NCBI GenBank assembly: GCA_910587065.1
Contig: CAJUMA010000003.1
Coordinates: 92,602-156,601 of the forward strand
Length of the DNA stretch: 64,000 nt
From: an uncultured Bacilli bacterium
Lineage (GTDB): Bacteria; Bacillota_I; Bacilli_A; RF39; UBA660
Direction: 5' to 3'
Below the pieces are notes generated by a model, which was not told the DNA's origin, searched no databases, and saw only the letters and a list, made by a program, of their open reading frames with translations. Numbering within the stretch: position 1 is the stretch's first letter; every line of letters begins with the position of its first letter. The translations under genes were made by a program, and so were the position numbers. Below are positions 1,710-55,185 of the stretch, one piece after another.

Positions 1710-1778
1710 AGGATATATTTTATCCTTTTCTTTTTATTTTTCTTAAGTTATAATATGTACTCGGAGGGAAGTGTAAAT

Positions 1779-11372: not shown

Positions 11373-11374
11373 AC

Positions 11375-14020: not shown

Positions 14021-14618
14021 ATATGAACGTAAAAAGACTATTGAAGAAATATTAAAAACTGATGCTGATTATATTCATGTAGATATAATGGATGGGAAGT
14101 TTGTTGAAAGAACTGTTTTAAGTATAGAAGAAACACAAAATCTATTTAATAATTGTTCTAAACCACTAGACATTCATCTTATGTGTTCCCATCCTGAAGA
14201 TTATATTGAGGCATCAAGAAACCTAAATGTTTCTTATATAACCATACATGCCGAAATAGACGACGATTTAGATGAACTGATTGAAATAATACATAGTTTG
14301 GGAATAAAAGCTGGATTAGCAATAAATCCTGATACGACGATTTCATCAATTGAAAAGTATTTAGAAAGAATTGAAAATGTCTTGATTATGGGAGTAAATC
14401 CAGGGTATGGAGGTCAGTCACTAATACCATCAACTGTGGATAAAATATCAGAACTTAAGAAGTTACGTGAAGATAAAAATTATCATTATCAAATATCTTT
14501 AGATGGGGGAGTTAATTTAGAAACTCGTAAAATGTTAGATGACTTAGATATTGTCGTTGCTGGTAGTTACATATGTGAGTCTAACGATTATCAAAAGCAA
14601 ATTGATACATTAAGATAA
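13989..14618 (+). CDS. rpe: ribulose-phosphate 3-epimerase family protein
   Basis: HVDIMDG, DIHLM, MGVNPGYGGQ, and LDGG motifs match the Rpe metal- and substrate-binding blocks. Synteny rsgA-rpe. Overlaps the rsgA 3' end in another frame. Confidence 0.7.
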   Translation: MKISVTFLKSKYERKKTIEEILKTDADYIHVDIMDGKFVERTVLSIEETQNLFNNCSKPLDIHLMCSHPEDYIEASRNLNVSYITIHAEIDDDLDELIEIIHSLGIKAGLAINPDTTISSIEKYLERIENVLIMGVNPGYGGQSLIPSTVDKISELKKLREDKNYHYQISLDGGVNLETRKMLDDLDIVVAGSYICESNDYQKQIDTLR

Positions 14619-14666
14619 AAACTTAATGTGTTTTTTTGCCTAAACAAAAAAAAGGAGTGTTTATAA

Positions 14667-19361: not shown

Positions 19362-20447
19362 ATGGAAAAAGTAGAATTACCAATATTAAGAGGGAATAAT
19401 AGTAGAAAGTCAATACCATTGACTGTTACTGTAGGATTAATTATACTAATAGTTTTATTATTGATAACAAGTTTATCTTTAACTTTTAAGAAAACTTATA
19501 AAATTAATTACAGTGATTCATCGGCCTTAGATTATAAGGTTTATCTTAAGAACAATCCATTTTTCCCAACAAAATATTTAGAGAAAGATAAACAATATAT
19601 ATCTTCAATAATTGATTATGTTGATGCAGACTTCTCATATAAATTCTCAAGTGAAGATGATATTGACATAGATTATGAGTACTATATTTTAGCAACATTA
19701 AACGTTTCTAATACTGATGGAAAAATAATCTATGATAAAAAAGAATATTTACAAAGTAGTAAAAAAGTTACAGCTGAAAATAATTCTTTAAGTGTTAATG
19801 AAAATGTCAAAATTGATTATGACAAATACAATAAGATGGCTAAAAGTTTCATAGATGAATATGGACTTACTGCTAATGCTAACTTGGTAGTAAGCTTAAT
19901 GGTTGATGTTAGAGGAAAGAATTCTCATTTCGATAAAACAATATCTGATAATGGTGTAATTACACTAACTATACCACTAACTACTAAAACAGTTGATATA
20001 TCAATGGACTATGATTTATCGAATAACAAAAATGCAACTCTTCAACAAAGAGAAGCAATTATAAATAATAAAGCATTATTTACTGCTGGAATAATATTTA
20101 TTATAATTGATATACTAGCCATAATTGCTCTTGTAATATATATAATAATTACAAGAGACGAAAAGGAAAATTATCGTGTTACTCTAAATAAGATTTTAAG
20201 AGAGAACGAAAGATATATAAGTGAAACAGTTATAACCGAAAGAGTAGAAGATATGTTGAAAACTCGTTCACTAAGAATTGAAGTGGTTAAGAGCTTTAAT
20301 GCCTTAATGGATATAAGAGATAGTTTAAATAAACCAATTTTATATCATGAAGAAAAACTTGGTGAAGAAGCTGTATTCTATATCATAAGTGAACATATAG
20401 GTTACATTTATGTTATGAGTGTAGAAGATTTTAAGAAAAAGAAATAA
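19362..20447 (+). CDS. bitopic/two-TM membrane protein of unknown function (accessory to the SipW-like gene)
   Basis: TM1 near the N-terminus (LTVTVGLIILIVLLLITSL). Extracytoplasmic Tyr/Asp/Lys-rich region of ~190 aa. TM2 (ALFTAGIIFIIIDILAIIALVIYIII). Cytoplasmic tail of ~105 aa. Confidence 0.5.
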   Translation: MEKVELPILRGNNSRKSIPLTVTVGLIILIVLLLITSLSLTFKKTYKINYSDSSALDYKVYLKNNPFFPTKYLEKDKQYISSIIDYVDADFSYKFSSEDDIDIDYEYYILATLNVSNTDGKIIYDKKEYLQSSKKVTAENNSLSVNENVKIDYDKYNKMAKSFIDEYGLTANANLVVSLMVDVRGKNSHFDKTISDNGVITLTIPLTTKTVDISMDYDLSNNKNATLQQREAIINNKALFTAGIIFIIIDILAIIALVIYIIITRDEKENYRVTLNKILRENERYISETVITERVEDMLKTRSLRIEVVKSFNALMDIRDSLNKPILYHEEKLGEEAVFYIISEHIGYIYVMSVEDFKKKK

Positions 20448-20504
20448 TTATATTTCTTTTTTTTTTGTTTTTCTTTATAATAGAGATATGGATGAAGTGA
20501 TTAT

Positions 20505-24339: not shown

Positions 24340-24563
24340 TGGTTATAAAAAACAAGGAACAAGAGGAGTAAAATACTCTACATTATTAGGGATGAAAGAT
24401 CATTGACTGAAAGTCTTTCTTAATGAAAGTATTTGAAGGTAGCTTGGGAGTTGTTAATCTGAAATAATTAGTAAGATTAAACGAGTCACTCACGTTAAGA
24501 GTAAAGAGCACAAATTAAGGTGGTACCACGAGTCTTCGTCCTTTGGATGAGGACTCTTTTTGT
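24340..24563 (+). promoter_or_regulatory. T-box riboswitch leader, controlling the valS operon
   Basis: Canonical T-box sequence AAATTAAGGTGGTACCACGAG at 24512-24533. Followed by an 11-bp terminator (gagtcttcgtc/gatgaggactc) and TTTTT at 24530-24563. Stem I region carries an AGAGGAG-like element and a GUC triplet (aaagtctttc), a candidate Val specifier. Confidence 0.75.
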
Positions 24564-24578
24564 ATATTAGGAGGATTT

Positions 24579-25088
24579 ATGAATACAGTGGTTCAAGATA
24601 AAAATATAGCATTTGTAATTAATCAGGAAAATAAAATACTAGTATTTATTAGAGAAACAAGAGATTCGGTAATTATGTCTTTTCCCGAAATAATGGCGGA
24701 TAGTAAAATACCTTTTTTAAATGATGAACATTTAGAAGAATATGAATATATAAATTCGTATTCAAAAGAAAAAAATGATTGTAAAATTGTTAATGGTCAT
24801 TTAATCAAATTCCCAAAACGAGTGCGCAAACACTTTTATGCTTTAAGATATGATTTAATGCCAGAAGATATTGAAGAAATAATGAATTTAACTCATAAGA
24901 TAGGCGCGGAACCATACTTTCTTGATATTGAAGAGATTAAAGACCTTTTTACCAAAAATTATTACTTAAGTAATTCCATTGATACAGCAAATTTAATAGA
25001 AAAAAAACTAAAACCAATTTTAGAACTTGAAAAGAAAATGCAACCGTTGCTTGTACAAAAACAAAAGATTAGAAAGGAAAGATATTAA
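24579..25088 (+). CDS. hypothetical protein (169 aa), first gene of the T-box-controlled valS operon
   Basis: ATG 24579 with RBS TTAGGAGGA. The ORF-track start at 24543 falls inside the terminator stem and is rejected. Its stop overlaps the valS ATG by 1 nt. Confidence 0.55.
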   Translation: MNTVVQDKNIAFVINQENKILVFIRETRDSVIMSFPEIMADSKIPFLNDEHLEEYEYINSYSKEKNDCKIVNGHLIKFPKRVRKHFYALRYDLMPEDIEEIMNLTHKIGAEPYFLDIEEIKDLFTKNYYLSNSIDTANLIEKKLKPILELEKKMQPLLVQKQKIRKERY

Positions 25089-27607
25089 TGTTAGATACTA
25101 AATATGATAATAAAAAAATAGAAGAAGGAAAATACGAAAAGTGGAAAAATGCTGGTTACTTTAATTCAGGAGATAAAACGAAAAATCCTTATTGTATAGT
25201 GATACCACCTCCAAATGTAACAGGAAAACTTCACTTAGGTCATGCTTTAGATGTTTCAATCCAAGATATAATAATTCGTTATAAAAGATTACAAGGATTT
25301 GATTGTCTTTGGCTACCGGGAATGGATCATGCTGCTATTGCAACGGAAGCAAAAGTTGTAAAAAGATTAAAAGACCAAGGAATTGATAAATACGAATATG
25401 GAAGGGGAAAATTCTTAGAAGCTTGTTGGGATTGGACACGTGAATATGGTGGTAACATTAGAGAGCAATGGGCAAAAATGGGTATATCAGTTGATTATAA
25501 TAAAGAAAGATTTACTCTCGATGAAGGACTTAATAAAGCTGTAACAAAAGTTTTTGTTGATTATTATAATGAGGGAATAATATATCGTGGCGAAAGAATC
25601 ATAAATTGGGATCCCGAAGCCCAAACTGCTCTTTCTAATGAAGAAGTTATTTATAAGGATGTTGAAGGAGCTTTCTATCATTTAAAGTATTATATTGAGG
25701 GAACAAGTGAATATTTGGATGTTGCGACAACAAGGCCAGAGACTTTATTTGGTGATACTGCTGTTGCTGTTAATGAAAATGATGAAAGATATAAAAAGTA
25801 TATTGGTAAGAACGTAATATTACCAATTGTTAACAAACCAATCCCAATAATTGCTGATGAGCATGCGGATCCTGAATTTGGAACAGGTGTTGTTAAAATT
25901 ACACCAGCACATGATCCAAATGACTTTGAAGTAGGAAATAGACATAATTTAGAAAGAATAGTTGTCATGAAGCCTGATGCTACAATGAACGCTAATGCAT
26001 TAAAATATGAAGGTATGAGTCGTGAAGAATGTAGGGAAGCTTTACTTGAAGATTTAAAACATGAAGATTTGCTTATAAATATTGAACCAATGACACATTC
26101 CGTAGGTCACTCAGAACGTACAGGTGTTATGGTTGAGCCATACTTATCAAAACAATGGTTTGTTCGCATGGGGACTTTAGCTAAAAGAGTATTAGAGACC
26201 CAAAAGATAAGTGCTGAAAAAGTAAATTTTGTACCAGACAAGTTTGAAAAAACTTTAACCCATTGGATGGAAGAATGCTTTGATTGGTGTATCTCTCGTC
26301 AATTATGGTGGGGACATAGAATTCCTGCTTGGTATAAGGGTGAAGAAGTTTATGTAGGGGAGAGTGCTCCAACTGGTGATGGCTGGGTACAAGATGAGGA
26401 TGTTTTAGATACATGGTTCTCAAGTGCACTTTGGCCTTTTAGTACACTTGGTTGGCCTGAGTCTACAGAAGACATGGAAAGATACTATCCAAACGATTGC
26501 TTAGTTACTGCTTATGATATTATTTTCTTTTGGGTTGCTAGAATGGTTTTCCAAGCAGAACATATCACTGGTTCGCGTCCTTTTAAAGACTGTGTAATTC
26601 ATGGACTTATTCGTGATAAGCAAGGAAGAAAAATGTCTAAGTCTCTTGGTAACGGTGTAGATCCAATGGATATGATTGAAAAATATGGGGTAGATGCCTT
26701 AAGATACTATCTAGCAACTGATGTGGCACCTGGAACAGATCTTCGTTTTGATGAAGAAAAACTTTCTAGTACTTGGAATTATATAAATAAAATTTGGAAT
26801 GCCTCTCGCTTTGTTTTACTAAATATTGAAGACTTAAATGAAGCTCGACTAGAAGACTTAAGCGATGAAGATAAATGGATACTAACTAAATATGAACGTG
26901 TAATAAAATCTACAATTAAACATATGGATAAATACGAATTTAATTTAGTAGGTACTGAAACATACAATTTTATCTATGATGATTTTTGTAGTAACTATAT
27001 TGAATTTGCTAAATATAACTTAGATAAGCAGTCTACTAAATCAACACTATTTTGGGTGCTATCTGGAATAATCCAAATATTACATCCATTCATGCCATTT
27101 GTAACAGAAGAAATTTATCAAATGTTACCAATTAAAACGCATGATTCCATAATGATAAGTGATTATCCAATTTATGATAAGTCTTTAATGTTTGAAGCAG
27201 AAGAAAAATTAGTCGATGAAAAAATTGAATTCATAAAAAATTTCCGTAATGTCAAATCTGAAAACAGTATTCCAAAAGATGCATTAGTTAAAATAAATAC
27301 AGAGGATGAAATAATTATCAAAATGTTAAAATTATCAGATGTATTAACAGAAGAAGATTTAAGTATTAATTCTTATGAAGTTAAAACACAAAAATATCAA
27401 GCAACAATTTATTTTGAAAAACAAGTAACGGAAGAAGAGTTAAAGTTAAAAGAAAAACAAATAAATGACTTAGAATCATCAATTGAAAGAAGAAAAAAAC
27501 TTTTAGCTAATGAAAATTATGTTGCTAAGGCACCAGCGGAGTTAGTTGAAAAAGAAAGAAAAACTTTAGAATCCGAAGAAGAGCAATTAGCTCTTTTAAA
27601 GAAATAA
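25088..27607 (+). CDS. valS: valine--tRNA ligase
   Basis: Class I HIGH region (PPPNVTGKLHLGHA). KMSKS present as KMSKSLGN. Editing and anticodon-binding regions. C-terminal coiled coil typical of ValS. Confidence 0.9.
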   Translation: MLDTKYDNKKIEEGKYEKWKNAGYFNSGDKTKNPYCIVIPPPNVTGKLHLGHALDVSIQDIIIRYKRLQGFDCLWLPGMDHAAIATEAKVVKRLKDQGIDKYEYGRGKFLEACWDWTREYGGNIREQWAKMGISVDYNKERFTLDEGLNKAVTKVFVDYYNEGIIYRGERIINWDPEAQTALSNEEVIYKDVEGAFYHLKYYIEGTSEYLDVATTRPETLFGDTAVAVNENDERYKKYIGKNVILPIVNKPIPIIADEHADPEFGTGVVKITPAHDPNDFEVGNRHNLERIVVMKPDATMNANALKYEGMSREECREALLEDLKHEDLLINIEPMTHSVGHSERTGVMVEPYLSKQWFVRMGTLAKRVLETQKISAEKVNFVPDKFEKTLTHWMEECFDWCISRQLWWGHRIPAWYKGEEVYVGESAPTGDGWVQDEDVLDTWFSSALWPFSTLGWPESTEDMERYYPNDCLVTAYDIIFFWVARMVFQAEHITGSRPFKDCVIHGLIRDKQGRKMSKSLGNGVDPMDMIEKYGVDALRYYLATDVAPGTDLRFDEEKLSSTWNYINKIWNASRFVLLNIEDLNEARLEDLSDEDKWILTKYERVIKSTIKHMDKYEFNLVGTETYNFIYDDFCSNYIEFAKYNLDKQSTKSTLFWVLSGIIQILHPFMPFVTEEIYQMLPIKTHDSIMISDYPIYDKSLMFEAEEKLVDEKIEFIKNFRNVKSENSIPKDALVKINTEDEIIIKMLKLSDVLTEEDLSINSYEVKTQKYQATIYFEKQVTEEELKLKEKQINDLESSIERRKKLLANENYVAKAPAELVEKERKTLESEEEQLALLKK

Positions 27608-30228: not shown

Positions 30229-31755
30229 ATGAAGAAAGTATTAAGTATGATCGTTAGTTTAATGTTAATAGTAAGTCCAGTATATGCCCTAGATTCAGAA
30301 GGAGTAATATATGATAATAGTACAAGCGGATCAAACGCAACAAATGTAAATGATGCCTTAAATGATTTATATAGTAAACTTAATGATATAAATAATATAG
30401 GAAATGCAACAGCAGATAAAATACTAAGTGGATATACAGCCTATGTCAAAGGAAATACAATAACAGGAAGTATACCAAGTAAAGGAGCAACAACATATAC
30501 TCCTGGAATAAAAGATCAAACGATAGCATCCGGTAATTATATATCAGGAACACAAACCATAAAAGGGGATGCAAACCTAGTTGCTGCAAATATAGCCAAA
30601 GGAAAGAGTATATTTGGAGTAAATGGTACATATACAAGTGATGCCAATGCTACTGCATCTGATATGGCATTAGGAAAAACAGCCTATGTAAATGGAAATA
30701 AGATAACTGGAGCATTAAAAAATCTAACAACATCAACACCAATACAACATGCAACAAATAATGGAACAAGAGTAGTAGCAGGAGATGCAGGATATGTATC
30801 GACAAATACAGATGGAGTATCAAGATTCCAAATAAGATATAATGGAGAGTCAGGAATCATATTGGGTAATACATTATTTGGACTGGAAATGAGTAAAGTA
30901 GTAAATACATTAGGAATAAATGCTAGTAAGGTAGCAAAAGGACAAACAATAGCAGGAGTAGCTGGATCATATACAAGTGATGCAAATGCTACAGCTGGAA
31001 ATATCTTAAGTGGAAAGACTGCATATGTAAATGGAAGTAAAATAACTGGGTCAATGGTGGATAGAACAAGTAATACAGGAACAACTGGTTTAGCATGGGC
31101 AACAAATAATTTAGAAATAACACAGTATAATCAATTAAGAATAGGAATAAATCCTGGATATTATGGAAGTGCTAACTATTCTAATTGGGGAGTATCAGGA
31201 ATAGTTATAGGAGATTTTCAAACTAAATTGGGTATAACTGCAGATAAAATAGTATCAGGTCAAACTGTAGCTGGAGTTACTGGTACAGGAGGAGGTTACA
31301 AAGCATATAAATTTGAAAAAGTTAAAGCAAGTGTATTAAGTGATAAAACATTTGATGGGTCATGGAAAAATATGATGTCAAAGGATGATTGGTCCTCATT
31401 TTCTATAGATTTAGGATTTACACCAAGTGAAGTAGTAGACTGCAAAGCCAAATTGGTAGGCAATTATTCTACTAATAGTGAAACTTCATGGGGAGCTAAT
31501 TTTCGAATTTCAAGAGGTTACATCGAAATGACTCACACTGGACAAAGTTACTATATGTACGATTTGCCATCGGATATGTACCTTTCTAACTCCAATAGTA
31601 CTGAAAATTATTCTGATATAATTACTAAATGTAGTGTTACTGGAAGTAAGCTAGTGTTTACCGTTTCAGATTCAAGTTATGGAACAACAACCTATGTTCC
31701 TGTTCAAACTAGAGCTACTGAATTTTATCTTACAGGCACTCTTATATATAAATAA
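30229..31755 (+). CDS. secreted protein with tandem ~45-aa repeats (tail-fibre-like / adhesin-like) and a C-terminal beta-rich domain
   Basis: Signal peptide MKKVLSMIVSLMLIVSPVYA. At least 3 repeats of the form A.KI..G.T..GV.G.YTSDANATA..IL.GKTAYVNG.KITG. No LPXTG motif and no C-terminal TM. Confidence 0.6.
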   Translation: MKKVLSMIVSLMLIVSPVYALDSEGVIYDNSTSGSNATNVNDALNDLYSKLNDINNIGNATADKILSGYTAYVKGNTITGSIPSKGATTYTPGIKDQTIASGNYISGTQTIKGDANLVAANIAKGKSIFGVNGTYTSDANATASDMALGKTAYVNGNKITGALKNLTTSTPIQHATNNGTRVVAGDAGYVSTNTDGVSRFQIRYNGESGIILGNTLFGLEMSKVVNTLGINASKVAKGQTIAGVAGSYTSDANATAGNILSGKTAYVNGSKITGSMVDRTSNTGTTGLAWATNNLEITQYNQLRIGINPGYYGSANYSNWGVSGIVIGDFQTKLGITADKIVSGQTVAGVTGTGGGYKAYKFEKVKASVLSDKTFDGSWKNMMSKDDWSSFSIDLGFTPSEVVDCKAKLVGNYSTNSETSWGANFRISRGYIEMTHTGQSYYMYDLPSDMYLSNSNSTENYSDIITKCSVTGSKLVFTVSDSSYGTTTYVPVQTRATEFYLTGTLIYK

Positions 31756-31816
31756 AATTAGAAAAAAATTATGCCATATATATACATACAATAAACAAGT
31801 GAATTTAGTTTATGTA

Positions 31817-31845
31817 TTGACAAAATATTCATATAGTAGTAATAT
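31817..31845 (+). promoter_or_regulatory. promoter (TTGACA-17-TAATAT) of the leader and Rel-like gene
   Basis: -35 at 31817-31822 and -10 at 31840-31845. Confidence 0.45.
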
Positions 31846-31874
31846 TCAATTACATTAATTATTTAAGAGGGTTT

Positions 31875-31964
31875 ATGAGGGAATTTTGTTGTATGATTTT
31901 AATTAATTTTTCATCTATACTAAATACTCTTTCATGTGTCCTAAATGTACAAACGATAGTCTAA
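31875..31964 (+). CDS. candidate 29-codon leader peptide (MREFCCMILINFSSILNTLSCVLNVQTIV)
   Basis: ATG preceded by AAGAGGG with a short 3-nt spacer. The stop TAA lies in the loop of the downstream terminator hairpin. Confidence 0.25.
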   Translation: MREFCCMILINFSSILNTLSCVLNVQTIV

Positions 31965-31986
31965 AGAAGCTATCGTTTTGTTTGTT
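31951..31986 (+). terminator. intrinsic terminator / attenuator immediately upstream of the Rel-like gene RBS
   Basis: 9-bp stem aaacgatag/ctatcgttt with a 10-nt loop, then the U-rich tract ttgtttgtttttt. The RBS GGGGAGG follows directly. Confidence 0.45.
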
Positions 31987-32003
31987 TTTTGGGGAGGTAT
32001 ATT

Positions 32004-33452
32004 ATGGGAATTGTTGATTTATTAAGTATTATTAAAGATTATGCACTAATGGATAAAGAATTTATTCTTCGTGCATATGAGTTTGCAAGTGAAGTGCATA
32101 AAGGTGCGAAGAGAAAAAGTGGGGAACCATATATAATACATCCTGTAGCAGTTGCTTGTATTGCTGCTTATATGCATGCCGATGTTGATACAATTGTTGC
32201 TTGTATTCTTCATGATGTAATTGAAGATGGAGAAATTACTAAAGAAGATTTAGCAAGAGAATTTAATCCAACTGTCGCTATGTTAGTTGATGGAGTAAGT
32301 AAGTTACCTAAATTTAGTATAAATAATAGCAAACTTGATACGGATAATTTTAATTTAAAAAAATTATTCTTAAGTTTAGTAAGTGATATAAGAGTAATTC
32401 TTATAAAAATATGTGATAGACTGCATAATATGCGAACACTGCAATATCATACACCAGAGAAACAAGTTGAAAATTCTAGAGAAACAGAAAAAATTTATGT
32501 TCCTTTTGCATCATTAATTGGTGCTTACAATATTAAGCAAGAACTAGATGATTATTCATTCATGTATTTACAACCAAAAGAATATGAGCAAACAGCATCT
32601 CTTCTAAAACAATTCCAAAGTGATAACTTTGATATTATTGAAGAAGCAATTTGTCGAGTATCCCAATTATTAAATTCCAAGTCAATACCATTTGAAGTAA
32701 AGCTTAGAGTCAAAAGTTTACATAGTCTATATGATAAAATCCAAAAATATGGTGACATCGTGAATGTTCATGATGTATTTTCAATAACTTTTTTGCTAGA
32801 TGATGTTGAAACTTGTTATAAACTCCAAAATGAAGTTTCTAAAATGTATCCAACAATTCCTCAAAAAGCAAAAGATTATATAGCAAACCCAAAAACTAAT
32901 ATGTATTCAGCTTTGCATTCTTCTGTTTATGCAAGCAACAATAATATGCTTCAATTTCAATTTACAACAAAAGATAGAGACTTCATTAATACTCATGGTA
33001 TAACGGCTTTTTGGGAATTACAGAAATTTAATCATGCACCTGAACACATGCAAGAAGAAGTAAGTAAAATGCCATTCTTCCGTTTTATAAAAGAACTTAA
33101 TGGTACTATTTTAGAAAATGAAGAATTTAATAAAGAAGTAACAGAAGATATACTTGCAGCTACATTAATTGTTTATACTCCAATGGGTGAAATAATTGAA
33201 TTGCCAAATGGATCTACTCCTGTTGATTTTGCTTATAAGATTCACGAAGAAATTGGTAACTGGATAACATCGGCAATAGTTAATGGAGAAAAAGTAGAAT
33301 TAAATCATTCATTAAAAAATGGTGACATAGTAGAAATTAAATTTCAAAAAGATACATACGGACCTATAAGAGATTTAGCAAGTATGTGTCATACTAATAA
33401 AGCAAAAAGAAAAATTAGAGAATTTAATAATCGCTGGCTAAAGAAGATGTAA
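32004..33452 (+). CDS. short RelA/SpoT-homolog: HD (ppGpp hydrolase) domain, degenerate synthetase-like domain, and TGS domain
   Basis: HD block HPVAVACI...ILHDVIEDG. The synthetase-domain blocks RVKSLHSLYDKI and DYIANPKTNMYSALHS are recognisable, but the catalytic EVQIRT motif reads QFQFTT. TGS-like C-terminus (PMGEIIELPNGSTPVDFAYKIH...VNGEKVELNHSLKNGDIVEI). No ACT/RRM region. ATG 32004 with RBS GGGGAGG. Confidence 0.7.
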   Translation: MGIVDLLSIIKDYALMDKEFILRAYEFASEVHKGAKRKSGEPYIIHPVAVACIAAYMHADVDTIVACILHDVIEDGEITKEDLAREFNPTVAMLVDGVSKLPKFSINNSKLDTDNFNLKKLFLSLVSDIRVILIKICDRLHNMRTLQYHTPEKQVENSRETEKIYVPFASLIGAYNIKQELDDYSFMYLQPKEYEQTASLLKQFQSDNFDIIEEAICRVSQLLNSKSIPFEVKLRVKSLHSLYDKIQKYGDIVNVHDVFSITFLLDDVETCYKLQNEVSKMYPTIPQKAKDYIANPKTNMYSALHSSVYASNNNMLQFQFTTKDRDFINTHGITAFWELQKFNHAPEHMQEEVSKMPFFRFIKELNGTILENEEFNKEVTEDILAATLIVYTPMGEIIELPNGSTPVDFAYKIHEEIGNWITSAIVNGEKVELNHSLKNGDIVEIKFQKDTYGPIRDLASMCHTNKAKRKIREFNNRWLKKM

Positions 33453-33565
33453 ACTTTAGTCAGTTTTTTTACGAATAACCTCATTAATTGGATGAATATC
33501 TATTGATAGCCTATATACAATGCTAAATTATTTGATATAGTAGTCTAGGATTAGAGGTAGTAAAA

Positions 33566-34633
33566 ATGATAAATCAAGAGAAATTTGCAAAATTTATAGT
33601 CGCTTTAAGAAAAGAGAAAGATTTAACTCAAGAAGATCTTGCTGCACATCTTTTCATTGGTAGAGAAGCAATAAGTAAATGGGAAAGAGGACTAGCTTTA
33701 CCAAGTTACAGTGTATTACTATTGTTAAGTGAAGAATTCGGTGTAACAATAAATGAATTATTATATGGTGAAAGAAAAAACGAAACCAATGAAGAAGAAG
33801 TTGAAGAGGAAACTATAAAATGGTTGTATAAATTTTCTACTGCATTAACTGCTAAAGTAAATAAGTATAAAAAGTTATTAATAATTCTCTTTGTTTTATC
33901 AGTCTTAGTTTATTTAATGAGTTGTTTTATTTTTAGTTATAATTCTTTGAAAGTTTATTCATTATATGCCACTGGAGAAGATTTTACAATAAACAAAGGA
34001 TTAGTAATGAATTGTAATAATAAAGTATATTTTCAAATGGGTAATGTAATTAATCATACTGATAAGGAAGTATTAGGTATAAGTATTTATTTTGGTAAAG
34101 ATGATAACAAGATTAAAATTTCTAGTGGTACAGATTTAAATGATATTGCAATGAATACAGGCGAATTAAAGAAATTAACAAAAGCTAATTTGAAAACTGT
34201 CTTAAAAGATTTATACATAGAAATTAAAACAGAGGATGATATAATAAATTATAAATTTGATGTAGATATGAATTTTAAATTACATATGTTAAAGGATAAA
34301 AAGACTACTAAAGAAGATGATAATATCTCACTAACATCGCTTCAAGATTCCAAAACAGATAACATAAAAAGTAAGTTCAAACTAAAGGATGGCAAATATG
34401 TCTATAAATTCAAGTATAAGAAGAAAACTTATAAGTTCTATCTTGAAGAGAATGTTATCTACATGGAACAAGATAATGTATTTTTAAGCTATAAAATAAG
34501 TGATGATATAATAAACATAATTAAGGGAAATGAAAGTGAAAGATTCAATATCAAAACAAATAAATGTGAAACTAAAAACTGTGATGAATTTTCCGATATA
34601 ATTGATATGTTCATAACTAAAATATTAAATTAA
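33566..34633 (+). CDS. membrane-tethered XRE-family HTH transcriptional regulator
   Basis: N-terminal Cro/C1 HTH (LRKEKDLTQEDLAAHLFIGREAISKWERG). Central TM (LLIILFVLSVLVYLMSCFIF). Extracytoplasmic C-terminal domain of ~230 aa. Confidence 0.65.
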   Translation: MINQEKFAKFIVALRKEKDLTQEDLAAHLFIGREAISKWERGLALPSYSVLLLLSEEFGVTINELLYGERKNETNEEEVEEETIKWLYKFSTALTAKVNKYKKLLIILFVLSVLVYLMSCFIFSYNSLKVYSLYATGEDFTINKGLVMNCNNKVYFQMGNVINHTDKEVLGISIYFGKDDNKIKISSGTDLNDIAMNTGELKKLTKANLKTVLKDLYIEIKTEDDIINYKFDVDMNFKLHMLKDKKTTKEDDNISLTSLQDSKTDNIKSKFKLKDGKYVYKFKYKKKTYKFYLEENVIYMEQDNVFLSYKISDDIINIIKGNESERFNIKTNKCETKNCDEFSDIIDMFITKILN

Positions 34634-34636
34634 CAC

Positions 34637-34658
34637 GGGCTTATTGAGCCCTTTTTTT
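34637..34658 (+). terminator. rho-independent terminator
   Basis: gggct-tattg-agccc followed by T7. Confidence 0.55.
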
Positions 34659-34697
34659 ACTTTGACATAAAATTATATCATTAAAACGGAGGATAAA

Positions 34698-35450
34698 ATG
34701 AAAAAGAGAATTTTGAGTGTTATGATTATCGCCCTTTCTTTATGGTCTATAGATGTATTTGCTGAACCATATTTTACTTCAAATAATGGTGTAGAATTAA
34801 CTGAATTTCAATATAATACTTTAATGGATATTTTATATGAAGATGACGTTTACAACCTTACAAATGAAGATTATGAGAATTTACATGTTGATCAAATGAT
34901 CGAAGGAACATTCACTTATAAAACACAAGAATTTGAAACACCAGAAGTATCATCTACTGGCGGATTAATGCCATATGCTTATCATGAAACAACATCAAAA
35001 AAAATTACTTTGGGAAATATGTGCACAGACAGCGTATGTCTTGTAACTGTTGATGTCACGTGGAAAAAGAAACCAGCGGTAGCAAGTTATGATGCAATTG
35101 GTCTTAGATTTGAAAATACTAGTTTTTATGATTCTGCAAACGTATTCTCAGCAAAAATGAGTGGAACATATTATTATGAACCCAATAAAGTTGTAAAGAC
35201 TGGTAATGGAGTTGCTGATATCAAAAAAATAACTACGGGTCTAACTTATATGTCACTACAAGCAAAAATAAGACCAACTAATAATGCAATAGTATTTGGT
35301 AGTTACCAACACGCTGTTGAGTCTGTAACATTATCACAAGCTAGTAATTTTACTTTCTCTGGCAATGGATACGGTCAAGTGTTCTTATGGCCAATGGCAA
35401 TAAGAGAAAAATATGACCAAATGTCAGGAGTATACATAACACTATACTAA
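34698..35450 (+). CDS. secreted protein of unknown function
   Basis: Signal peptide MKKRILSVMIIALSLWSIDVFA. RBS ACGGAGGA. Confidence 0.5.
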   Translation: MKKRILSVMIIALSLWSIDVFAEPYFTSNNGVELTEFQYNTLMDILYEDDVYNLTNEDYENLHVDQMIEGTFTYKTQEFETPEVSSTGGLMPYAYHETTSKKITLGNMCTDSVCLVTVDVTWKKKPAVASYDAIGLRFENTSFYDSANVFSAKMSGTYYYEPNKVVKTGNGVADIKKITTGLTYMSLQAKIRPTNNAIVFGSYQHAVESVTLSQASNFTFSGNGYGQVFLWPMAIREKYDQMSGVYITLY

Positions 35451-35629: not shown

Positions 35630-36919
35630 ATGGAAGCAAATAATGGCGGAACAAAAATAATTGATGGAGTAGTTTATCAAGCTGTATCACCAGCTAGTGT
35701 ACCTACAACTGCTGAATCACAAATAGTCATACAACCAAAAGTAGAAGTTGGAGAAAGTCCAAATGGAGAAATAGAGTTTAATTTTGAAAGAGTAGATATG
35801 CAAGATCCTTTTTCAATTCTTTCATATGGAAATGATGTTCAAAAAGAGATATGTGCAATTTTAGATAGTACTGCTCAAATGACAGTATGTAGTGAAAGAA
35901 CATTCTTAAATGATGATATGCTTGCTAAAGTTGTATCATTTGAAGAATCTCTTGATGATGCTAAAAAGAGACAAGCACAAGAAGAAGGCCTTTTAAAAAG
36001 ACTTGCAAAAAGCATTTTATTAAAAGCTAATAATCAACAAGTAAAAAAAGAAGAAGAAATGAAAACATATCAAGGAAGATATAAGGATTATACAGAAAAC
36101 CTTAATTTAGTTGCTGAAAATGTTTCACAAATAGCAAGAGATGCTTTATCAGATATTCAATTAAGAAAAGAAATTACTAAACAATTAACACCAATAATTG
36201 CAAAACTTGATGCAATGGTTAAGGCTGGTAGAGAAGATCGTGAAAAATATGATTTAGAAACTTTAGCAATCGGACAAGAAGATCAAAGTCCTGATACTCA
36301 AGCCATAGTTTCATATCGTACTCAACAATCAAATGTCTTTTTAAATCAATTAAATGGACTTGAAAAAGCAGTAGTATTATATAAAGGACAAATTCAACAA
36401 TATCAAATTCAACAAAATAATTCGATGATTGCTGTTCAACAAGCCCATGACTTTGTAACAAATCAAAAATCAGTCTTACAATCTCTTGCTAGTGTTCAAA
36501 TATTAAATAGGCAAGATACTGAAAGATTAAACTCTTTAGCTAGCGTTTCAGAAGCAGCAAACATTGCGATAACTCAAGGAGCTGCTCAAACAGCTGAAAA
36601 TGCACGTTTAGCAAGCGAACTTGCTTTAAATGGTGGTTTCACAATGGACTCAATAGAGAGTGTCATGAACTCAATTAATGAAGGTGTTTCAATTATTGCA
36701 TCAACTAAAGAATTATTATTAAAGAGAAATCATGCTGAAGAAGAAGGATTAGCTAGAATTCAAGATCAACTAGAAGCAAATAAACAAAATATATTAAGTT
36801 TAATAGAAGATCAATCATCTGCCACTTTAGCTTTAGAAGAAAAAGAAAATAAAGGTGGATATCAAAGAAGAGTATCTTCGTCATTCCCATCAATCAATCG
36901 TCCAAAAATAGGTAGATAA
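35630..36919 (+). CDS. TelA-like (toxic-anion-resistance family) coiled-coil protein
   Basis: All-helical, Gln-rich coiled coil with no TM. N-terminal block VDMQDPFSILSYGNDVQKEICAILDSTAQM resembles the conserved TelA d.p..i..fG..aQ..i block. Family assignment is from memory only. Confidence 0.45.
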   Translation: MEANNGGTKIIDGVVYQAVSPASVPTTAESQIVIQPKVEVGESPNGEIEFNFERVDMQDPFSILSYGNDVQKEICAILDSTAQMTVCSERTFLNDDMLAKVVSFEESLDDAKKRQAQEEGLLKRLAKSILLKANNQQVKKEEEMKTYQGRYKDYTENLNLVAENVSQIARDALSDIQLRKEITKQLTPIIAKLDAMVKAGREDREKYDLETLAIGQEDQSPDTQAIVSYRTQQSNVFLNQLNGLEKAVVLYKGQIQQYQIQQNNSMIAVQQAHDFVTNQKSVLQSLASVQILNRQDTERLNSLASVSEAANIAITQGAAQTAENARLASELALNGGFTMDSIESVMNSINEGVSIIASTKELLLKRNHAEEEGLARIQDQLEANKQNILSLIEDQSSATLALEEKENKGGYQRRVSSSFPSINRPKIGR

Positions 36920-36921
36920 AA

Positions 36922-38145
36922 ATGGATGAATTAGATGTAAAAATATCTAAAATAAAAAATCTTAATCTAATATATTTATATAATATTAATGATTCACTGT
37001 CTTTACCTGATGAAAGAAAGTATTTAGCTCTTAAAGTGATGTATGATAATAATCAAGAATATATAAGTATAGATTTTAAAGATGAGCATTTTGGCAGTTT
37101 AATTAAGAAAGTTCTAGACTGTTACAATCAAGAGAAGGATAATAGAAATATTATCCTTTTAGGGGATTTGACTAATGAGTTATTCGCGAATTCAAAATCT
37201 TTTGTTGCAAATATTTTAAGTTCTAAAAATGAAGCAACTCCTATATTTAAAACCCAAAATGAATTAATTAGAGCATACTTACCATTTTTAAAAGAAGTTT
37301 TAGAGAGTATTATTAAACACATTCGAAAAATAGAAGGTGTAACTATAGAAAGTCTTGATGGCTATAATAAAAAGTTTATAGTGAATATTTCTTTATCAGG
37401 AATGAAAAGACAGTTTCCTATAATTTTATATTTTAGTAAACAAAATATTTTAAATTTTAAAATAGGAGCTATTCTTGATACTACAATTGGAGTCTCAGGT
37501 ACAATTGAAACTAATTTAGGTACAGTTTTAACCTGTTGGCACGCTGCATATTTAAATAGTTCTGGTTATATTTATTATAATGCTTTGGAAGGAATAGTTG
37601 AAAAAAGTGTAAGTATCAACAATAATCCAATTTATCATTCAACAGAAATTGATGCTGTAAGTGATAAAGATATTTCTTTAATTAACTTCTATCTAGAATT
37701 ATTTAAAATAGGTATTAAAGGTGATGTTATTAAAACAAGCGATCATAACTTTATTATTAGTTCTAAAAATATTTCATCTAATGAAGATGCAGATATGATG
37801 GAACTTTCAAGTGCTCAAGTTTTCGTTCAAGATAATGAAGTTACAATAAAATATCGTATATCTAGAATACTTAATAAATTAAAACATTTAGTTAGTATTC
37901 CACTAGATGATGAAGAATATATAGTTTCTTTAAAAAAGAAAACTATAGATCAAAAGACTTATCTTTTAGCAGAATCCTCTGATAAAACTCATGAATATGT
38001 AATATTTGAGGTTGATGATATTGACTTACATCATCCATTTGAAATTAAGGCAAAAGAAATTGTTAATGGTACTATAAAATATTCAGATGACATAAAAATG
38101 CGATTAAGAGCAGTAAAACAGGAATCCCAAAAAGGAGATGAATAG
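36922..38145 (+). CDS. hypothetical protein (407 aa), second gene of the operon
   Basis: Starts 2 nt after the TelA-like stop. No recognisable motif. Confidence 0.5.
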   Translation: MDELDVKISKIKNLNLIYLYNINDSLSLPDERKYLALKVMYDNNQEYISIDFKDEHFGSLIKKVLDCYNQEKDNRNIILLGDLTNELFANSKSFVANILSSKNEATPIFKTQNELIRAYLPFLKEVLESIIKHIRKIEGVTIESLDGYNKKFIVNISLSGMKRQFPIILYFSKQNILNFKIGAILDTTIGVSGTIETNLGTVLTCWHAAYLNSSGYIYYNALEGIVEKSVSINNNPIYHSTEIDAVSDKDISLINFYLELFKIGIKGDVIKTSDHNFIISSKNISSNEDADMMELSSAQVFVQDNEVTIKYRISRILNKLKHLVSIPLDDEEYIVSLKKKTIDQKTYLLAESSDKTHEYVIFEVDDIDLHHPFEIKAKEIVNGTIKYSDDIKMRLRAVKQESQKGDE

Positions 38146-46117: not shown

Positions 46118-48214
46118 ATGAATTCACAAAAAGAAGATGTTTTAGAAAAATACGGCCGTGATATAACAATCCTAGCAAAAGATAATAAAATTGATCCAGT
46201 TATTGGTCGTGATGAAGAAATCCGTAATCTAATTAGGATTCTTTCTCGTAAAACCAAAAATAATCCAGTCCTAATTGGTAATCCAGGTACTGGTAAAACC
46301 GCGATTGTTGAAGGGTTAGCTGGAAGAATTATCAAAGGAGATATTCCAGATACTTTAAAGAATAAAACAGTTTGGGAACTAGATTTATCTGCTTTAGTAG
46401 CTGGTGCTAAATATCAAGGTGAATTTGAAGAAAGATTTAAAGCTGTTCTTGACCGTGTATTAGAGTCTAATGGCGATATTATCATGTTTATTGATGAAAT
46501 ACATATGATAACAGGTGCTGGATCTAGTTCAGCTATGAATGTTGGGAATATGCTAAAACCGATGCTTGCAAGAGGAGAAATTCGTTTAATAGGCGCAACA
46601 ACGTTAAATGAGTATCGAGAATATATTGAAAAAGATGGAGCTTTAGAAAGAAGACTTCAAAAAATTAAAGTATCTGAACCTAATGTAGTAGATACTTTAA
46701 CAATCCTTCGAGGATTAAAAGAAAGATTTGAAGTATTTCACGGTGTTACGATAAAAGATGCAGCCCTTATATCCGCTGTTAACTTATCTGATAGATATAT
46801 CACCGATAGATTTTTACCTGATAAAGCCATAGATTTAGTTGATGAAGCCTGTGCGACAATTAAAATGCAAATGAATTCTGTACCAACAGACTTAGATGAG
46901 ATGAACCGTTCTATTATGACACTTGAAATAGAAAGAGAAGCTCTAAAACGTGAAAAAGACACTAAATCAGTCACTCGTGTTAAAGAAATAGACGAAGAGA
47001 TGAAAGACTTAAAAACGAAAGCTGATGAATATCGAAAAGTTTGGGAAGAAGAGAAAAAACTTAAAAATTTAATAAATTCTAAAAAAGAAAAACTAGAAAA
47101 ATTAAGATTTGAATTAGCTCAAGCTGAAGATTCTTATGATTTAGAAAAAGCTGCTCGCTTAAAACATGGAGAAATACCAAATTTAGAAATGGAATTATCT
47201 CAGCTTAAACTAAGTATGTCATCATCTGTTTTATCGGATACTGTTGACAGTGAAGATATTGCAAATATTGTTAGTAAATGGACTAATGTTCCTGTAACGA
47301 AACTTGTAGGTGGCGAAAAAGAAAAACTATTAAATTTAAAAGAAAATCTAGCCACCCGTGTTAAGGGACAAGATGAAGCCATTGAACTTGTATCAAACGC
47401 TATAATTCGTGCAAGGAGTGGAATAAAAGATCCTGCAAGACCAATTGGTTCCTTTATTTTCATGGGACCAACTGGTGTAGGTAAAACGGAGATAGCAAAA
47501 AGTTTAGCTTATGAACTATTTGATGATGAAAGACACATGATACGAATTGATTGCTCAGAATATATGGAAGCATTTAATGTGTCACGCTTACTTGGAGCAC
47601 CTCCAGGCTATGTAGGTTATGAATCAGGTGGTGAATTAACTGAAGCTATAAGAAGGAACCCTTATTCTATCGTCTTATTTGATGAAATAGAAAAAGCTCA
47701 TCCAGATGTCTTTAATATTTTACTTCAAATACTTGATGATGGTAGAATCACAGACTCGCAAGGTCGTGTTATTGATTTTAAAAACACGATTATTATCATG
47801 ACTTCTAATCTTGGAAGTGATATTATCCTAAATAATGAAGCTAATCGCGAAGAACTTGTAATGAATTTATTAAAATCAACATTTAGACCTGAATTAATAA
47901 ACAGAATAGATGAAATAATAACGTTTAATTCTATAACCAAAACTGTGGCTTATGAAATACTTGATAGATTAATAAGTGATTTAAATAAAAGATTAAATCA
48001 AATATTTATTAATGTTATGTTATCTGATAAAGCGAAAATAAAAGTTATTGAAGAATCTTTTGATAAAGAGTTTGGAGCTCGTCCCGTTAAAAGATATTTA
48101 ACTAAATACATCGAAAATATAATTTCTAAATATATCTTGGAAAATGAGATAACAGAAACAACAGAACTATTAATAGATGTCGAAAATGAAGAATATAAAA
48201 TAAAATGCGTATAA
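46118..48214 (+). CDS. clpB: ClpB-type AAA+ disaggregase lacking the N-terminal domain
   Basis: Starts directly at the LEKYGRDIT...PVIGRDEEIRNLIRILSRKTKNNPVLIGNPGTGKT block. Two AAA+ modules (NBD1 Walker A GNPGTGKTA; NBD2 GPTGVGKTE). Coiled-coil M-domain. No ~150-aa N-domain is encoded, because a terminator hairpin and RBS immediately precede the ATG. Confidence 0.85.
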   Translation: MNSQKEDVLEKYGRDITILAKDNKIDPVIGRDEEIRNLIRILSRKTKNNPVLIGNPGTGKTAIVEGLAGRIIKGDIPDTLKNKTVWELDLSALVAGAKYQGEFEERFKAVLDRVLESNGDIIMFIDEIHMITGAGSSSAMNVGNMLKPMLARGEIRLIGATTLNEYREYIEKDGALERRLQKIKVSEPNVVDTLTILRGLKERFEVFHGVTIKDAALISAVNLSDRYITDRFLPDKAIDLVDEACATIKMQMNSVPTDLDEMNRSIMTLEIEREALKREKDTKSVTRVKEIDEEMKDLKTKADEYRKVWEEEKKLKNLINSKKEKLEKLRFELAQAEDSYDLEKAARLKHGEIPNLEMELSQLKLSMSSSVLSDTVDSEDIANIVSKWTNVPVTKLVGGEKEKLLNLKENLATRVKGQDEAIELVSNAIIRARSGIKDPARPIGSFIFMGPTGVGKTEIAKSLAYELFDDERHMIRIDCSEYMEAFNVSRLLGAPPGYVGYESGGELTEAIRRNPYSIVLFDEIEKAHPDVFNILLQILDDGRITDSQGRVIDFKNTIIIMTSNLGSDIILNNEANREELVMNLLKSTFRPELINRIDEIITFNSITKTVAYEILDRLISDLNKRLNQIFINVMLSDKAKIKVIEESFDKEFGARPVKRYLTKYIENIISKYILENEITETTELLIDVENEEYKIKCV

Positions 48215-53399: not shown

Positions 53400-54362
53400 A
53401 TGGATATTAAGAAAATAAAAAAAGTTGAATTGCATGTACATTTAGATGGCTCTCTTAATATAAATACGATAAGTGACATTCTAAAAATTGAAAAAGATGA
53501 AATAAAAAACAAATTAATAGCTGATAAAAAATGTAGGGATTTAAATGATTACTTACAAGTATTTGATTTGCCAATTAAAGTAATGCAAACAAAAGAAAGT
53601 CTAATTCGTACATCTAAAGACTTAATAGAAAGTTTCATTAACGATAATGTAATATATGCTGAAGTGCGTTTTGCTCCAAACAAACACACAACTATTTTAA
53701 CTTTAGATGAGGTTATAACTTCTGTATTAGAGGGAATAAAGTCTCTTAAAGTTAAAGTAAAATTAATACTTTGTATGATGCGTGGGGATGATTTTTCAGA
53801 CAACAAAAAAATAATTGATCTTGCTTATAAATATAAAGATGATGGAGTAGTAGGAATTGATTTAGCAGGGGCCGAAGGATTATATAAAACAAGTGATTAT
53901 TTGCCTCTTTTTAAATATGCATCATCCCTTAACATACCATTCACTATTCATGCGGGTGAAGCGGATGGAATAGAGAGTATTAATGCTGCAATATCTGCTG
54001 GAGCAACGAGAATTGGTCATGGTGTAAGAGCAATTGAAAGTAAAGAATGCATTAATAAATTAAAAGAGAAGAATATCCTATTAGAAATATGCCCAACAAG
54101 TAATATACAAACAGGTATTGCTCCATCAATGGAATTACACCCTATAAAAAAATTATATGATAGTGGAGTAAAAGTATCTATTAATACAGATAATAGAACT
54201 GTATCGAATGTTACTTTAAATGAAGAGTACGAAATTTTAGTTAAAGCTTTTGACTTTACAGAAGAAGACTTTAATAAAATGAATGCAGAAGCCATAAAAC
54301 ACAGTTTTCTAAGTGATAGAGATAAGCAAGAACTTATAAACATATTAAAAGAGGCAAGTTAA
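53400..54362 (+). CDS. add: adenosine deaminase
   Basis: HVHLDGSL zinc-binding motif, FTIHAGE block, and SINTDN. ATG 53400. Confidence 0.85.
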   Translation: MDIKKIKKVELHVHLDGSLNINTISDILKIEKDEIKNKLIADKKCRDLNDYLQVFDLPIKVMQTKESLIRTSKDLIESFINDNVIYAEVRFAPNKHTTILTLDEVITSVLEGIKSLKVKVKLILCMMRGDDFSDNKKIIDLAYKYKDDGVVGIDLAGAEGLYKTSDYLPLFKYASSLNIPFTIHAGEADGIESINAAISAGATRIGHGVRAIESKECINKLKEKNILLEICPTSNIQTGIAPSMELHPIKKLYDSGVKVSINTDNRTVSNVTLNEEYEILVKAFDFTEEDFNKMNAEAIKHSFLSDRDKQELINILKEAS

Positions 54363-54378
54363 TTGTCTCTTATTTTAA

Positions 54379-55014: not shown

Positions 55015-55185
55015 TCGTATCACCTCAGTATCTTATATAATTATAACAATGATTTAAAAAAAATAGCAACAAAATATTATGAAATATTTTTTTTGCTTTT
55101 GGGAATAATATAGAAGAAAATTAGTTTATGAAGTATTTACATAAAAACTTGATAATGCTATAATTTAATCATAGGATGTGGATAT

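Follow-up and report, generated by a model that had tools for sequence, protein, structure and literature searches.

The gene rel' lies in a 64-kb stretch of A+T-rich chromosomal DNA from an uncultured Bacilli bacterium (contig CAJUMA010000003.1; this whole stretch of 64,000 nucleotides is referred to below as the window). It encodes a truncated long RelA/SpoT homolog (RSH), Rel', whose sole activity is most likely (p)ppGpp hydrolysis, a type written [Hs]. The gene is preceded by a leader that contains a hairpin designated P1, a short open reading frame (sORF) and an intrinsic terminator. The account that we favour, to which we would give an even chance, is that a whole clade of truncated RSHs is of the [Hs] type and that rel' is gated by the P1/sORF/terminator leader, with read-through occurring when a ribosome stands on the last codons of the sORF.

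The order of domains in Rel', HD followed by RelA_SpoT, is that of the long RSH superfamily according to both Pfam and NCBIfam. The NCBIfam model spoT_relA (TIGR00691) matches Rel' with E = 1.4e-129 over model positions 1-452 of 687, and its score of 433 falls short of the 499 cut-off owing to the missing C-terminus. The closest solved structure is that of Bacillus subtilis Rel (PDB 6YXA, E = 4.8e-102). Residues 19-477 of Rel' are colinear with residues 26-483 of the B. subtilis protein through the HD, synthetase (SYN) and TGS domains, and Rel' ends at the equivalent of residue 483-487, i.e., at the start of the helical domain. From the full regulatory C-terminal region (TGS, helical, ZFD/CC and ACT/RRM), only the TGS domain is present. 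With a profile built on the C-terminal 247 positions of the full-length proteins, coding for helical, ZFD or ACT domains was detected in none of the frames of the 64-kb window; therefore, the truncation is real and does not reflect a split gene. An initial annotation, made from the letters of the sequence, had described a protein of 482 residues with an HD motif and a TGS domain and without the ACT/RRM region, and the Pfam matches, the alignment to 6YXA and the C-terminal profile bear this out. Contigs from several NCBI genome assemblies encode an identical protein, and a relative at 72% identity was found in the genome collection in a mouse-gut metagenome-assembled genome (uncultured Bacilli bacterium isolate MGBC164624). 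There is no plasmid or phage match for Rel' at 60% identity or more.

When Rel' is aligned to Rel, the motifs of the HD domain are unbroken (EPYIIHP, LHDVIED and DRLHNMRT), and the catalytic residues H46, H70, D71, E74, D75, D138 and N142 are invariant in 47 of 47 clade members. The synthetase domain has fared otherwise. The Rel motif LEVQIRT corresponds to LQFQFTT in Rel', which places Gln317 (codon CAA, 32952-32954) at the position of the catalytic Glu and Thr at that of the Arg. The segment YDLLAVRILV reads HDVFSITFLL, with the Asp retained and the Arg replaced by Thr262, and AHWAYK has become AFWELQ. The change from EVQIRT to QFQFTT and the loss of the Arg in DxxxxRV had both been claimed in the initial annotation, and both are confirmed by the alignment to B. 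subtilis Rel. With Gln fixed in place of the catalytic Glu, and with both the 'AVR' Arg and the 'AHWxYK' motif gone, the synthetase of Rel' is best regarded as a pseudo-domain. The same Glu-to-Gln exchange in Escherichia coli SpoT (E319Q) abolishes the synthetase and leaves ppGpp decay normal (PMC6085430). Acinetobacter baumannii SpoT is a natural example of a hydrolase-only long RSH, of the [Hs] type, that carries a pseudo-SYNTH domain (PMC9974481). The prediction of a hydrolase-only enzyme, which had also been made at the outset, is thus well supported at the level of sequence: Gln is invariant in a monophyletic truncated clade, the HD motifs are intact, and SpoT E319Q provides a direct parallel (PMC6085430).

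Full-length proteins have 66 alignment columns in SYN and 91 in HD that are at least 95% conserved; of these, 24 and 18, respectively, are lost in the truncated clade. A total of 60 residues are invariant over 47 diverse clade members, and D257, K297, N299, Y301 and Q317 of the pseudo-synthetase are among them. Because Gln317 is invariant, the pseudo-synthetase appears to be kept under selection instead of decaying, perhaps for nucleotide binding or as a scaffold.

Rel' is far from unique. When 5.8 billion proteins were searched, dozens of three-domain homologs of 474-495 residues were recovered, with identities ranging from 99% down to about 40%; full-length Rel proteins (725-793 residues) come after these truncated homologs and have at most 42% identity to Rel'. 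A set of 120 sequences was aligned, in which the truncated class (470-500 residues) has 87 members and the full-length class 31. Gln is present at position 317 in 87/87 truncated proteins, within LVQTQIRT or LQFQ-type motifs, and Glu in 31/31 full-length ones. A metagenome scan with the clade alignment produced at least three further clade loci among the 80 loci listed, the rest serving as a full-length control. In this collection, the truncated open reading frames (ORFs) have Gln in three cases out of three, and the full-length ORFs have Glu in 73 of the 74 scored, with no motif match in the remaining one. The truncated set forms a single bipartition in 50/50 neighbour-joining bootstraps. As judged by these alignments, the truncated RSHs of this set are a monophyletic clade of uncultured A+T-rich gut and rumen Bacilli. 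Neither an earlier description of this clade nor one of leader control of a (p)ppGpp hydrolase gene was found in the open-access literature.

The elements of the leader and of the gene are listed in Table 1. Transcription is predicted to start near 31852, so that the leader is about 150 nucleotides (nt) long, instead of the 130 nt given in the initial annotation. The 29-codon leader ORF with its own Shine-Dalgarno (SD) sequence had been noted there, and it is indeed present; the arrangement to which it belongs proves to be conserved and clade-specific, as described below. The terminator hairpin (31951-31978) has 9-10 base pairs, a folding energy of -11 kcal/mol and z = -2.6 relative to shuffled sequences, and UGUUUGUUUUUU follows directly on its 3' side. 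It starts 11 nt before the sORF stop codon, and the terminator ends 25 nt before the rel' ATG. The stop codon itself (TAA, 31962-31964) sits in the terminator loop, exactly where it had first been placed. The U-tract had been thought to lie 12 nt before the main ribosome binding site (RBS); it in fact abuts the rel' SD directly. The rel' SD and the start 'ATGGGAA' are common to relatives.

No promoter fits between the U-tract and the SD, and rel' must therefore be transcribed through the leader hairpin. Going by this layout, rel' is expected to be expressed solely by read-through of that hairpin. At the other end, the gene has a terminator of its own (-12.7 kcal/mol, z = -3.06; 0/200 shuffles fold as well), which makes the rel' unit monocistronic. 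The region 31700-32100 yielded only a spurious snoRNA when compared with Rfam at E up to 10. The possibility that the leader is a T-box or a ppGpp/PRPP riboswitch of the ykkC type was rejected, since no relevant Rfam match appears at E up to 10.

Table 1. Elements of the rel' leader and gene, with positions in the 64-kb window.
Feature	Position	Strand	Description and basis
Promoter, sigma-70/sigma-A-type	31817..31845	+	TTGACA-17-TAATAT; promoter scan, 10/12 matches
sORF Shine-Dalgarno	31867..31871	+	GAGGG, 3-4 nt before sORF ATG; read from sequence
P1 hairpin	31868..31942	+	5' strand 31868-31886, 3' strand 31922-31942; minimum free energy (MFE) structure of 31860-31950
Leader sORF MREFCCMILINFSSILNTLSCVLNVQTIV	31875..31964	+	29 codons + TAA; ORF list
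Intrinsic terminator	31951..31990	+	Stem 31951-31959 / 31970-31978, U-tract 31979-31990; terminator scan
rel' RBS and start	31991..32006	+	SD GGGGAGG 31991-31997, ATG 32004-32006; read from sequence
rel'	32004..33452	+	Truncated long RSH, 482 residues; ATG 32004, TAA 33450-33452
HD domain of rel'	~32073-32513	+	Pfam HD_4, residues 24-170, 7.5e-37
Pseudo-synthetase of rel'	~32706-33017	+	Pfam RelA_SpoT, residues 235-338, 4.5e-18
TGS domain of rel'	~33168-33338	+	Pfam TGS, residues 389-445, 2.4e-21
rel' own terminator	33433..33471	+	Hairpin loop holds rel' stop codon 33450-33452; scan

Besides the window, 14 clade loci include DNA upstream of the gene (L007, L010, L011, L013-L019, L021 and L098-L100). 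In one of these, L007, the DNA breaks off about 70 nt before the gene; without it, and with the window counted, 14 loci are usable. The sORF-terminator arrangement is present in 12 of the 14, down to about 40% protein identity (L018, L019 and L021). It consists of an sORF of 23-39 codons with SD and ATG, a terminator hairpin and a U-tract, and the rel' start follows 16-29 nt further on. In all 12 leaders, an SD-like purine run lies 3-7 nt ahead of the sORF ATG, and the sORF stop codon falls between -8 and +20 nt relative to the 5' start of the hairpin. The leader is found whatever gene precedes it, be it lysS or a gene for a variable surface protein, an HTH_1 protein, a class-I tRNA synthetase or a phosphodiesterase. 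Full-length rel loci are different: a terminator 10-40 nt before the start was found in only one of the 70 examined, and the sORF-terminator arrangement in none. Within the 64-kb window, the arrangement occurs once.

Chance is a poor explanation for this regularity. When the 125 nt before each hairpin were subjected to dinucleotide shuffling, a qualifying sORF (SD and ATG, at least 20 codons, ending at the hairpin) appeared in 0.1-2.8% of trials, with a mean of 1%; it is observed in 12/12 terminator-bearing leaders. Stops within the sORFs occur at 11% per codon off-frame vs. none in frame over 340 codons. The peptide, in turn, drifts. The main proteins of the window and of L010 share 88% identity, and the sORFs of the two differ at nine non-synonymous and three synonymous sites. 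A conserved frame with a drifting peptide is what selection on the act of being translated, and not on the product, would give.

The hairpins behave in a similar manner. Their stems are wholly unlike between subgroups (ACGAUAG.., GGUGAUUGCC.., CUGGGGCGAC.. and GCGCUAAGGC..) and occupy the same position; in the cut locus L007, too, a hairpin is seen, with a different stem sequence. The terminator is the sole consensus structure that RNAalifold recovers from eight leaders, with compensatory changes in five of 10 pairs. On these comparisons, the leader is conserved and specific to the truncated clade.

Upstream of the relatives' leaders, a -35 element TTGAC(A/T), an A/T-rich -10 element and the spacer motif ATAGTAGTAAT recur. 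In the promoter spacer of the window (31823-31839) and its equivalents in relatives, ATAGTAG or ATAGTG is conserved just upstream of the -10 element, and an A is conserved about 7 nt past it, suggesting an A-initiated transcript. An operator, a -16 element or an effect of the initiating nucleoside triphosphate (NTP) are possible explanations for these conserved positions.

The P1 hairpin is an addition to the account given in the initial annotation. Its 5' strand holds the SD and AUG of the sORF, while the 3' strand holds CUCUUUCAUG..GUCCU near the 3' end of the sORF; in the window, P1 forms the centroid core of the whole-leader fold. When each leader was folded over the segment that starts 16 nt ahead of the sORF AUG and runs to the terminator base, the P1 topology was the MFE structure in 12/12 cases. 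The 3' strand corresponds to a conserved CUUUCAU...CCU that pairs with AUGAGRG and the SD, and reads L-S-[C/Y]-x-L-[N/K] in frame. P1 is better than dinucleotide shuffles in 10/12 leaders (z from -2.08 to -5.28), and an independent RNAduplex test gave a mean z of -2.9. The layout shared by the family is thus P1 enclosing the sORF, a gap of 0-18 nt, the terminator and the rel' RBS. According to the folding model, P1 can sequester the RBS of the sORF.

It could in principle also serve as an RNA thermometer. An Hsp20 gene followed by a ClpB-like AAA+ gene is located at 45685-48214 (+), about 12 kb downstream of rel', and in L098 an Hsp20 and ClpB-like pair comes directly after rel' (1721-3111). 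These neighbours hint at a link with heat or proteotoxic stress.

The peptides encoded by the sORFs offer few clues. The initial annotation had described the leader peptide as rich in Ile, Leu, Asn, Ser and Cys. This richness is for the most part what an A+T-rich ORF would give; relative to the nucleotide-level expectation, an excess is seen in the sORF peptides for Cys (2.2x) and Ser (1.6x) alone. The semi-conserved L-S-[CY]-x-L-[NK] segment of the peptides coincides with the 3' strand of P1, and its conservation may reflect a constraint on the RNA and not on the peptide. Amino-acid-specific sensing was considered and is not favoured, as an apparent 8-fold excess of Cys over the proteome shrinks to 2.2-fold relative to the nucleotide-level expectation. 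Cys codons number 21/328 in frame vs. 16/316 in one off-frame of the sORFs.

The following sequence of events would account for the conserved leader. A polymerase starting from the promoter at 31817 would first transcribe a translated sORF of about 29 codons. In the default state, P1 and the terminator would both form, and transcription would abort. Were a ribosome to load on the sORF co-transcriptionally, before P1 closes, it could be on the last sORF codons while the polymerase is at the U-tract. With a footprint that extends about 10-15 nt 3' of the A site, the ribosome would in that case cover the 5' arm of the terminator and allow read-through. Synthesis of the hydrolase would in this way be tied in cis to translational competence, or to the closeness of ribosome and polymerase, and would compensate for the lost ribosome-sensing domains. 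The direction of control could take one of two forms. Either the hydrolase is shut off in starvation, or whenever translation fails, or it is induced when the polymerase slows at low GTP and coupling is restored, which would constitute a negative feedback similar to that of pyrBI.

The sequence indicates that the sORF is evidently translated and ends at an attenuator-type terminator placed between the sole promoter and rel'; occlusion of that terminator by the ribosome is the most likely step to follow. Precedents for such a step exist. In a synthetic demonstration in E. coli, termination fell from about 90% to less than 10% once the stop codon had been shifted to a site 5 bp ahead of a terminator, and translation was required for the effect (PMC4824070). 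In B. subtilis bmrB, the leader ORF overlaps the terminator, and control is mediated by the ribosome (PMC4191407).

A number of observations weigh against this gating by the ribosome. No antiterminator was found, as complementarity to the terminator arms is not above that of shuffles (mean z of +0.5 for the 5' arm and +0.35 for the 3' arm). Nor do the leader sORFs contain a conserved run of regulatory codons, and the composition of their peptides is approximately what A+T-rich DNA would be expected to encode. P1, which is well supported in the family, is unremarkable in the window itself (z = -0.31) and has z = -1.08 in L010, the nearest relative of the window. Two loci of the clade depart from the pattern, L099 having a plain promoter and no leader, and L098 a leader that is ambiguous. 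On the enzyme side, no second RSH or small alarmone synthetase is encoded within the 64-kb window.

The geometry of the terminator is also less distinctive than it seems. Among the 14 gene-end terminators of the window, i.e., those at the ends of ORFs of at least 150 residues, 12 start before the stop codon or no more than 12 nt after it, that of rel' included. A stop codon within a hairpin is therefore ordinary gene-end geometry here, and this limits confidence in the ribosome step. Proximity of stop codon and terminator has been used as an indicator of runaway transcription, in which polymerases outpace ribosomes (Johnson et al. 2020, as outlined in PMC7858274), and Bacillota have been classed as runaway transcribers (PMC13323073). 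If the ribosomes lag, the leader terminator would form before a ribosome arrives, unless the polymerase pauses, either at P1 or at low NTP. The attenuator proposed in the initial annotation, with which the favoured account agrees and in which a ribosome finishing the leader peptide melts the terminator and earlier stalling permits termination, thus stands as regards the layout of sORF and terminator; the melting step is weakened by the missing antiterminator and codon run and by the ordinary stop-in-hairpin geometry. Further stop-proximal gene-end terminators are found at 1695-1733, 14605-14631, 20433-20464 and 54351-54369, among other places. A different form of control, at the level of translation, in which a conserved CCUAAA pairs with the rel' SD, was rejected (mean z of 0.04).

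These weaknesses lend some weight to the main rival, an attenuator that works independently of translation. Termination would then be fixed, or controlled by a factor such as NTP levels, NusA/NusG, an RNA-binding protein or temperature acting on P1, and the ribosome would never be in time; the sORF would stay open through constraints imposed by P1, through protection of the mRNA or through a function of the peptide. Runaway-type terminator geometry across the window (PMC7858274; PMC13323073) and the failure to find an antiterminator or regulatory codons are what such an attenuator would lead one to expect, and so is the burial of the sORF SD and AUG in P1, which would keep translation low. It is harder to reconcile with an SD- and ATG-bearing ORF kept at the terminator in 12/12 leaders despite the drift of the peptide. 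With a chance of about 1% per leader and an off-frame stop frequency of 11%, the pattern fits selection on translation in cis, and there is no match to an Rfam riboswitch or leader family at E up to 10. We consider translation-independent attenuation somewhat unlikely. The sORF might instead be a small gene in its own right, encoding a hydrophobic micro-peptide or belonging to a dual-function small RNA, with rel' expressed by constitutive leakage. The peptides are indeed hydrophobic, with a basic N-terminus and a length of 23-39 residues, the layout of 5' hairpin and terminator resembles that of small RNAs, and the gene-end geometry is ordinary for the genome. However, purifying selection on the peptide is not visible (nine non-synonymous vs. 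three synonymous differences), and its composition is as the nucleotide content predicts. The element is, moreover, strictly linked to rel' across different upstream neighbours and absent elsewhere in the window, and rel' has no promoter of its own. An independent small gene is, in our judgement, improbable.

Two further alternatives concern the protein. NCBI names clade members 'bifunctional (p)ppGpp synthetase/...hydrolase', and substrate-binding residues are kept (RxK, D257, which is the equivalent of D264, K297, Y301 and H305), so that a synthetase working with Gln or another residue might be envisaged. Yet the catalytic Glu is Gln in 87/87 proteins, the conserved Arg and AHWxYK are lost, the same exchange kills the synthetase of SpoT (PMC6085430), and the NCBIfam spoT_relA score of 433 is under the cut-off of 499. 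A bifunctional enzyme is very improbable on this evidence, and the NCBI name is probably wrong. A length of about 480 residues together with Q-x-Q replacing E-x-Q would provide a simple rule for re-annotation. Finally, truncation and loss of an active site look like decay, and a frameshifted truncated RSH does exist on a Bacillus thuringiensis plasmid; rel' could accordingly be imagined as a pseudogene fragment, and the hairpin upstream as the terminator of the preceding gene. This idea is effectively refuted by the existence of at least 87 clade members of 470-500 residues with an intact frame and 60 invariant residues, and by a promoter that lies downstream of the preceding gene's stop codon, in a leader kept regardless of the gene upstream.

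The favoured reading, an [Hs] enzyme gated by a translated leader, invites comparison with several known systems. A leader-peptide attenuator whose leader ORF runs into the terminator is known from pyrBI of E. coli. As in pyrBI and bmrB-bmrCD (PMC4191407), a short ORF with its own SD ends at or within a terminator that precedes the regulated gene. Unlike in bmrB or trp, there is no antiterminator or anti-antiterminator in the rel' leader. It also differs from leader-peptide attenuators in lacking regulatory codon runs, in the sequestration of the sORF RBS by P1, in having a (p)ppGpp hydrolase gene as its target and in the runaway-type terminator geometry of the host. By its layout, the rel' leader would belong to the broad class of leader-ORF transcription attenuators, without the antiterminator that defines the classical type.

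On the protein side, B. subtilis Rel (6YXA) has HD, SYN and TGS domains colinear with those of Rel'; it differs in having EVQIRT and a ribosome-binding C-terminal region, where Rel' has QFQFTT and stops at the equivalent of about residue 487 of Rel. SpoT of A. baumannii and other Moraxellaceae (PMC9974481; PDB 7QPR was matched), which is of the [Hs] type, resembles Rel' in having lost synthetase residues and retained a folded SYNTH domain beside an active HD. In contrast to Rel', where only TGS is left, it has a full TGS-HEL-ZFD-RRM C-terminal region that activates its hydrolase allosterically. It comes from a different lineage, the Gammaproteobacteria, and the loss of the synthetase is independent.

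Another truncated RSH, RshC, which is of the [HS] type, has been described in the Bacillus cereus group (Atkinson et al. 2011, PMC3153485). Like Rel', it is truncated in the helical domain, retains TGS and occurs in Bacilli. RshC was reported from six Bacillus strains that also have Rel, RelP and RelQ, to which it is an additional copy, and, in contrast to Rel', it was classed as having intact synthetase motifs [HS]. Members of the Rel' clade, for their part, come from uncultured A+T-rich gut Bacilli, and Gln is fixed in them in place of the catalytic Glu. No description of a leader for RshC was found.

A possible relic of RshC was encountered on the B. thuringiensis plasmid pHS18-1 (NZ_CP012100.1, 206387-207655; L101), where an unannotated, frameshifted RSH ends just after TGS. 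It has a degenerate synthetase motif, VICIQTK, and an IS4 transposase adjoins it. As the sole truncated RSH of the B. cereus group that was compared, it has up to 35% identity to full-length Rel and up to 33% to the Rel' clade, and probably represents an RshC-type remnant that was truncated independently. An assignment of Rel' to RshC is not favoured: this frameshifted locus, the sole truncated copy compared, does not group with the Rel' clade, and the synthetase motif of Rel' is not intact.

Of the two halves of the stringent response, the control of (p)ppGpp degradation is the less well understood. So far, long RSHs that are hydrolases only have been documented chiefly in Moraxellaceae, in which hydrolysis is activated by the C-terminal domains. 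The present clade, populous and unstudied, belongs to gut and rumen Bacilli; both the chemistry of the synthetase and the domains that bind the ribosome have been lost from it, and a specific leader, itself conserved, goes with it. Should this leader tie synthesis of the hydrolase to the status of translation, it would constitute a new regulatory route into alarmone homeostasis, and also a two-hairpin attenuator in a lineage that is thought to uncouple transcription from translation. It is tempting to go further and suppose that the mRNA leader has replaced the ribosome-sensing C-terminal domains of Rel, reads the state of translation or how tightly it is coupled to transcription (as when the polymerase slows at low GTP), and sets the amount of a constitutively active hydrolase-only enzyme, a proposal that we hold to be rather doubtful. 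Were it true, control of (p)ppGpp turnover would have shifted from allostery on the ribosome to attenuation of a transcript.

Between lysS and rel' lies a gene (30229-31755, +) for a 508-residue protein rich in Gly, Thr, Asn and Ser, which has a signal-peptide-like N-terminus and no Pfam match. This slot is variable: the gene is absent in L014, where lysS adjoins rel', and other genes occupy the position in L015-L017. The next gene after rel' starts at 33566 and encodes an HTH_3/XRE membrane protein of about 350 residues with a hydrophobic segment. Together with a gene for a secreted-looking protein of 250-255 residues without a Pfam match, it forms a syntenic block (33566-35450, +) that is kept in the closer relatives (L001-L003, L010, L011, L013 and L014). 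A run of four genes follows at 35630-41222 (+), encoding a weakly TelA-like protein (429 residues), a protein of 407 residues with no match, an AAA_5 ATPase of 723 residues and a DUF7192 protein; the run may constitute a module for stress or defence. In L016, a gene of the Ppx/GppA family, i.e., the pppGpp/polyphosphate phosphatase family, is located about 2 kb downstream of rel' (6590-7461, -), which is consistent with alarmone metabolism in these organisms.

Elsewhere in the window, the only Rfam match at gathering level is a T-box leader (RF00230, 105.9 bits) at 24346-24546 (+), with a terminator at 24530-24556. Downstream of it are an ORF of 169 residues without a Pfam match (24579-25088) and a class-I valyl-type tRNA synthetase gene (25088-27607). 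A typical Firmicute cluster of rlmN, a PP2C-like phosphatase gene and a gene for a PASTA Ser/Thr kinase of the PrkC type (9613-13171, +) supports a Bacilli chromosomal origin of the window. Towards the other end, an ORF of 2399 residues with an N-terminal hydrophobic segment (55156-62355, +) presumably encodes a giant surface protein.

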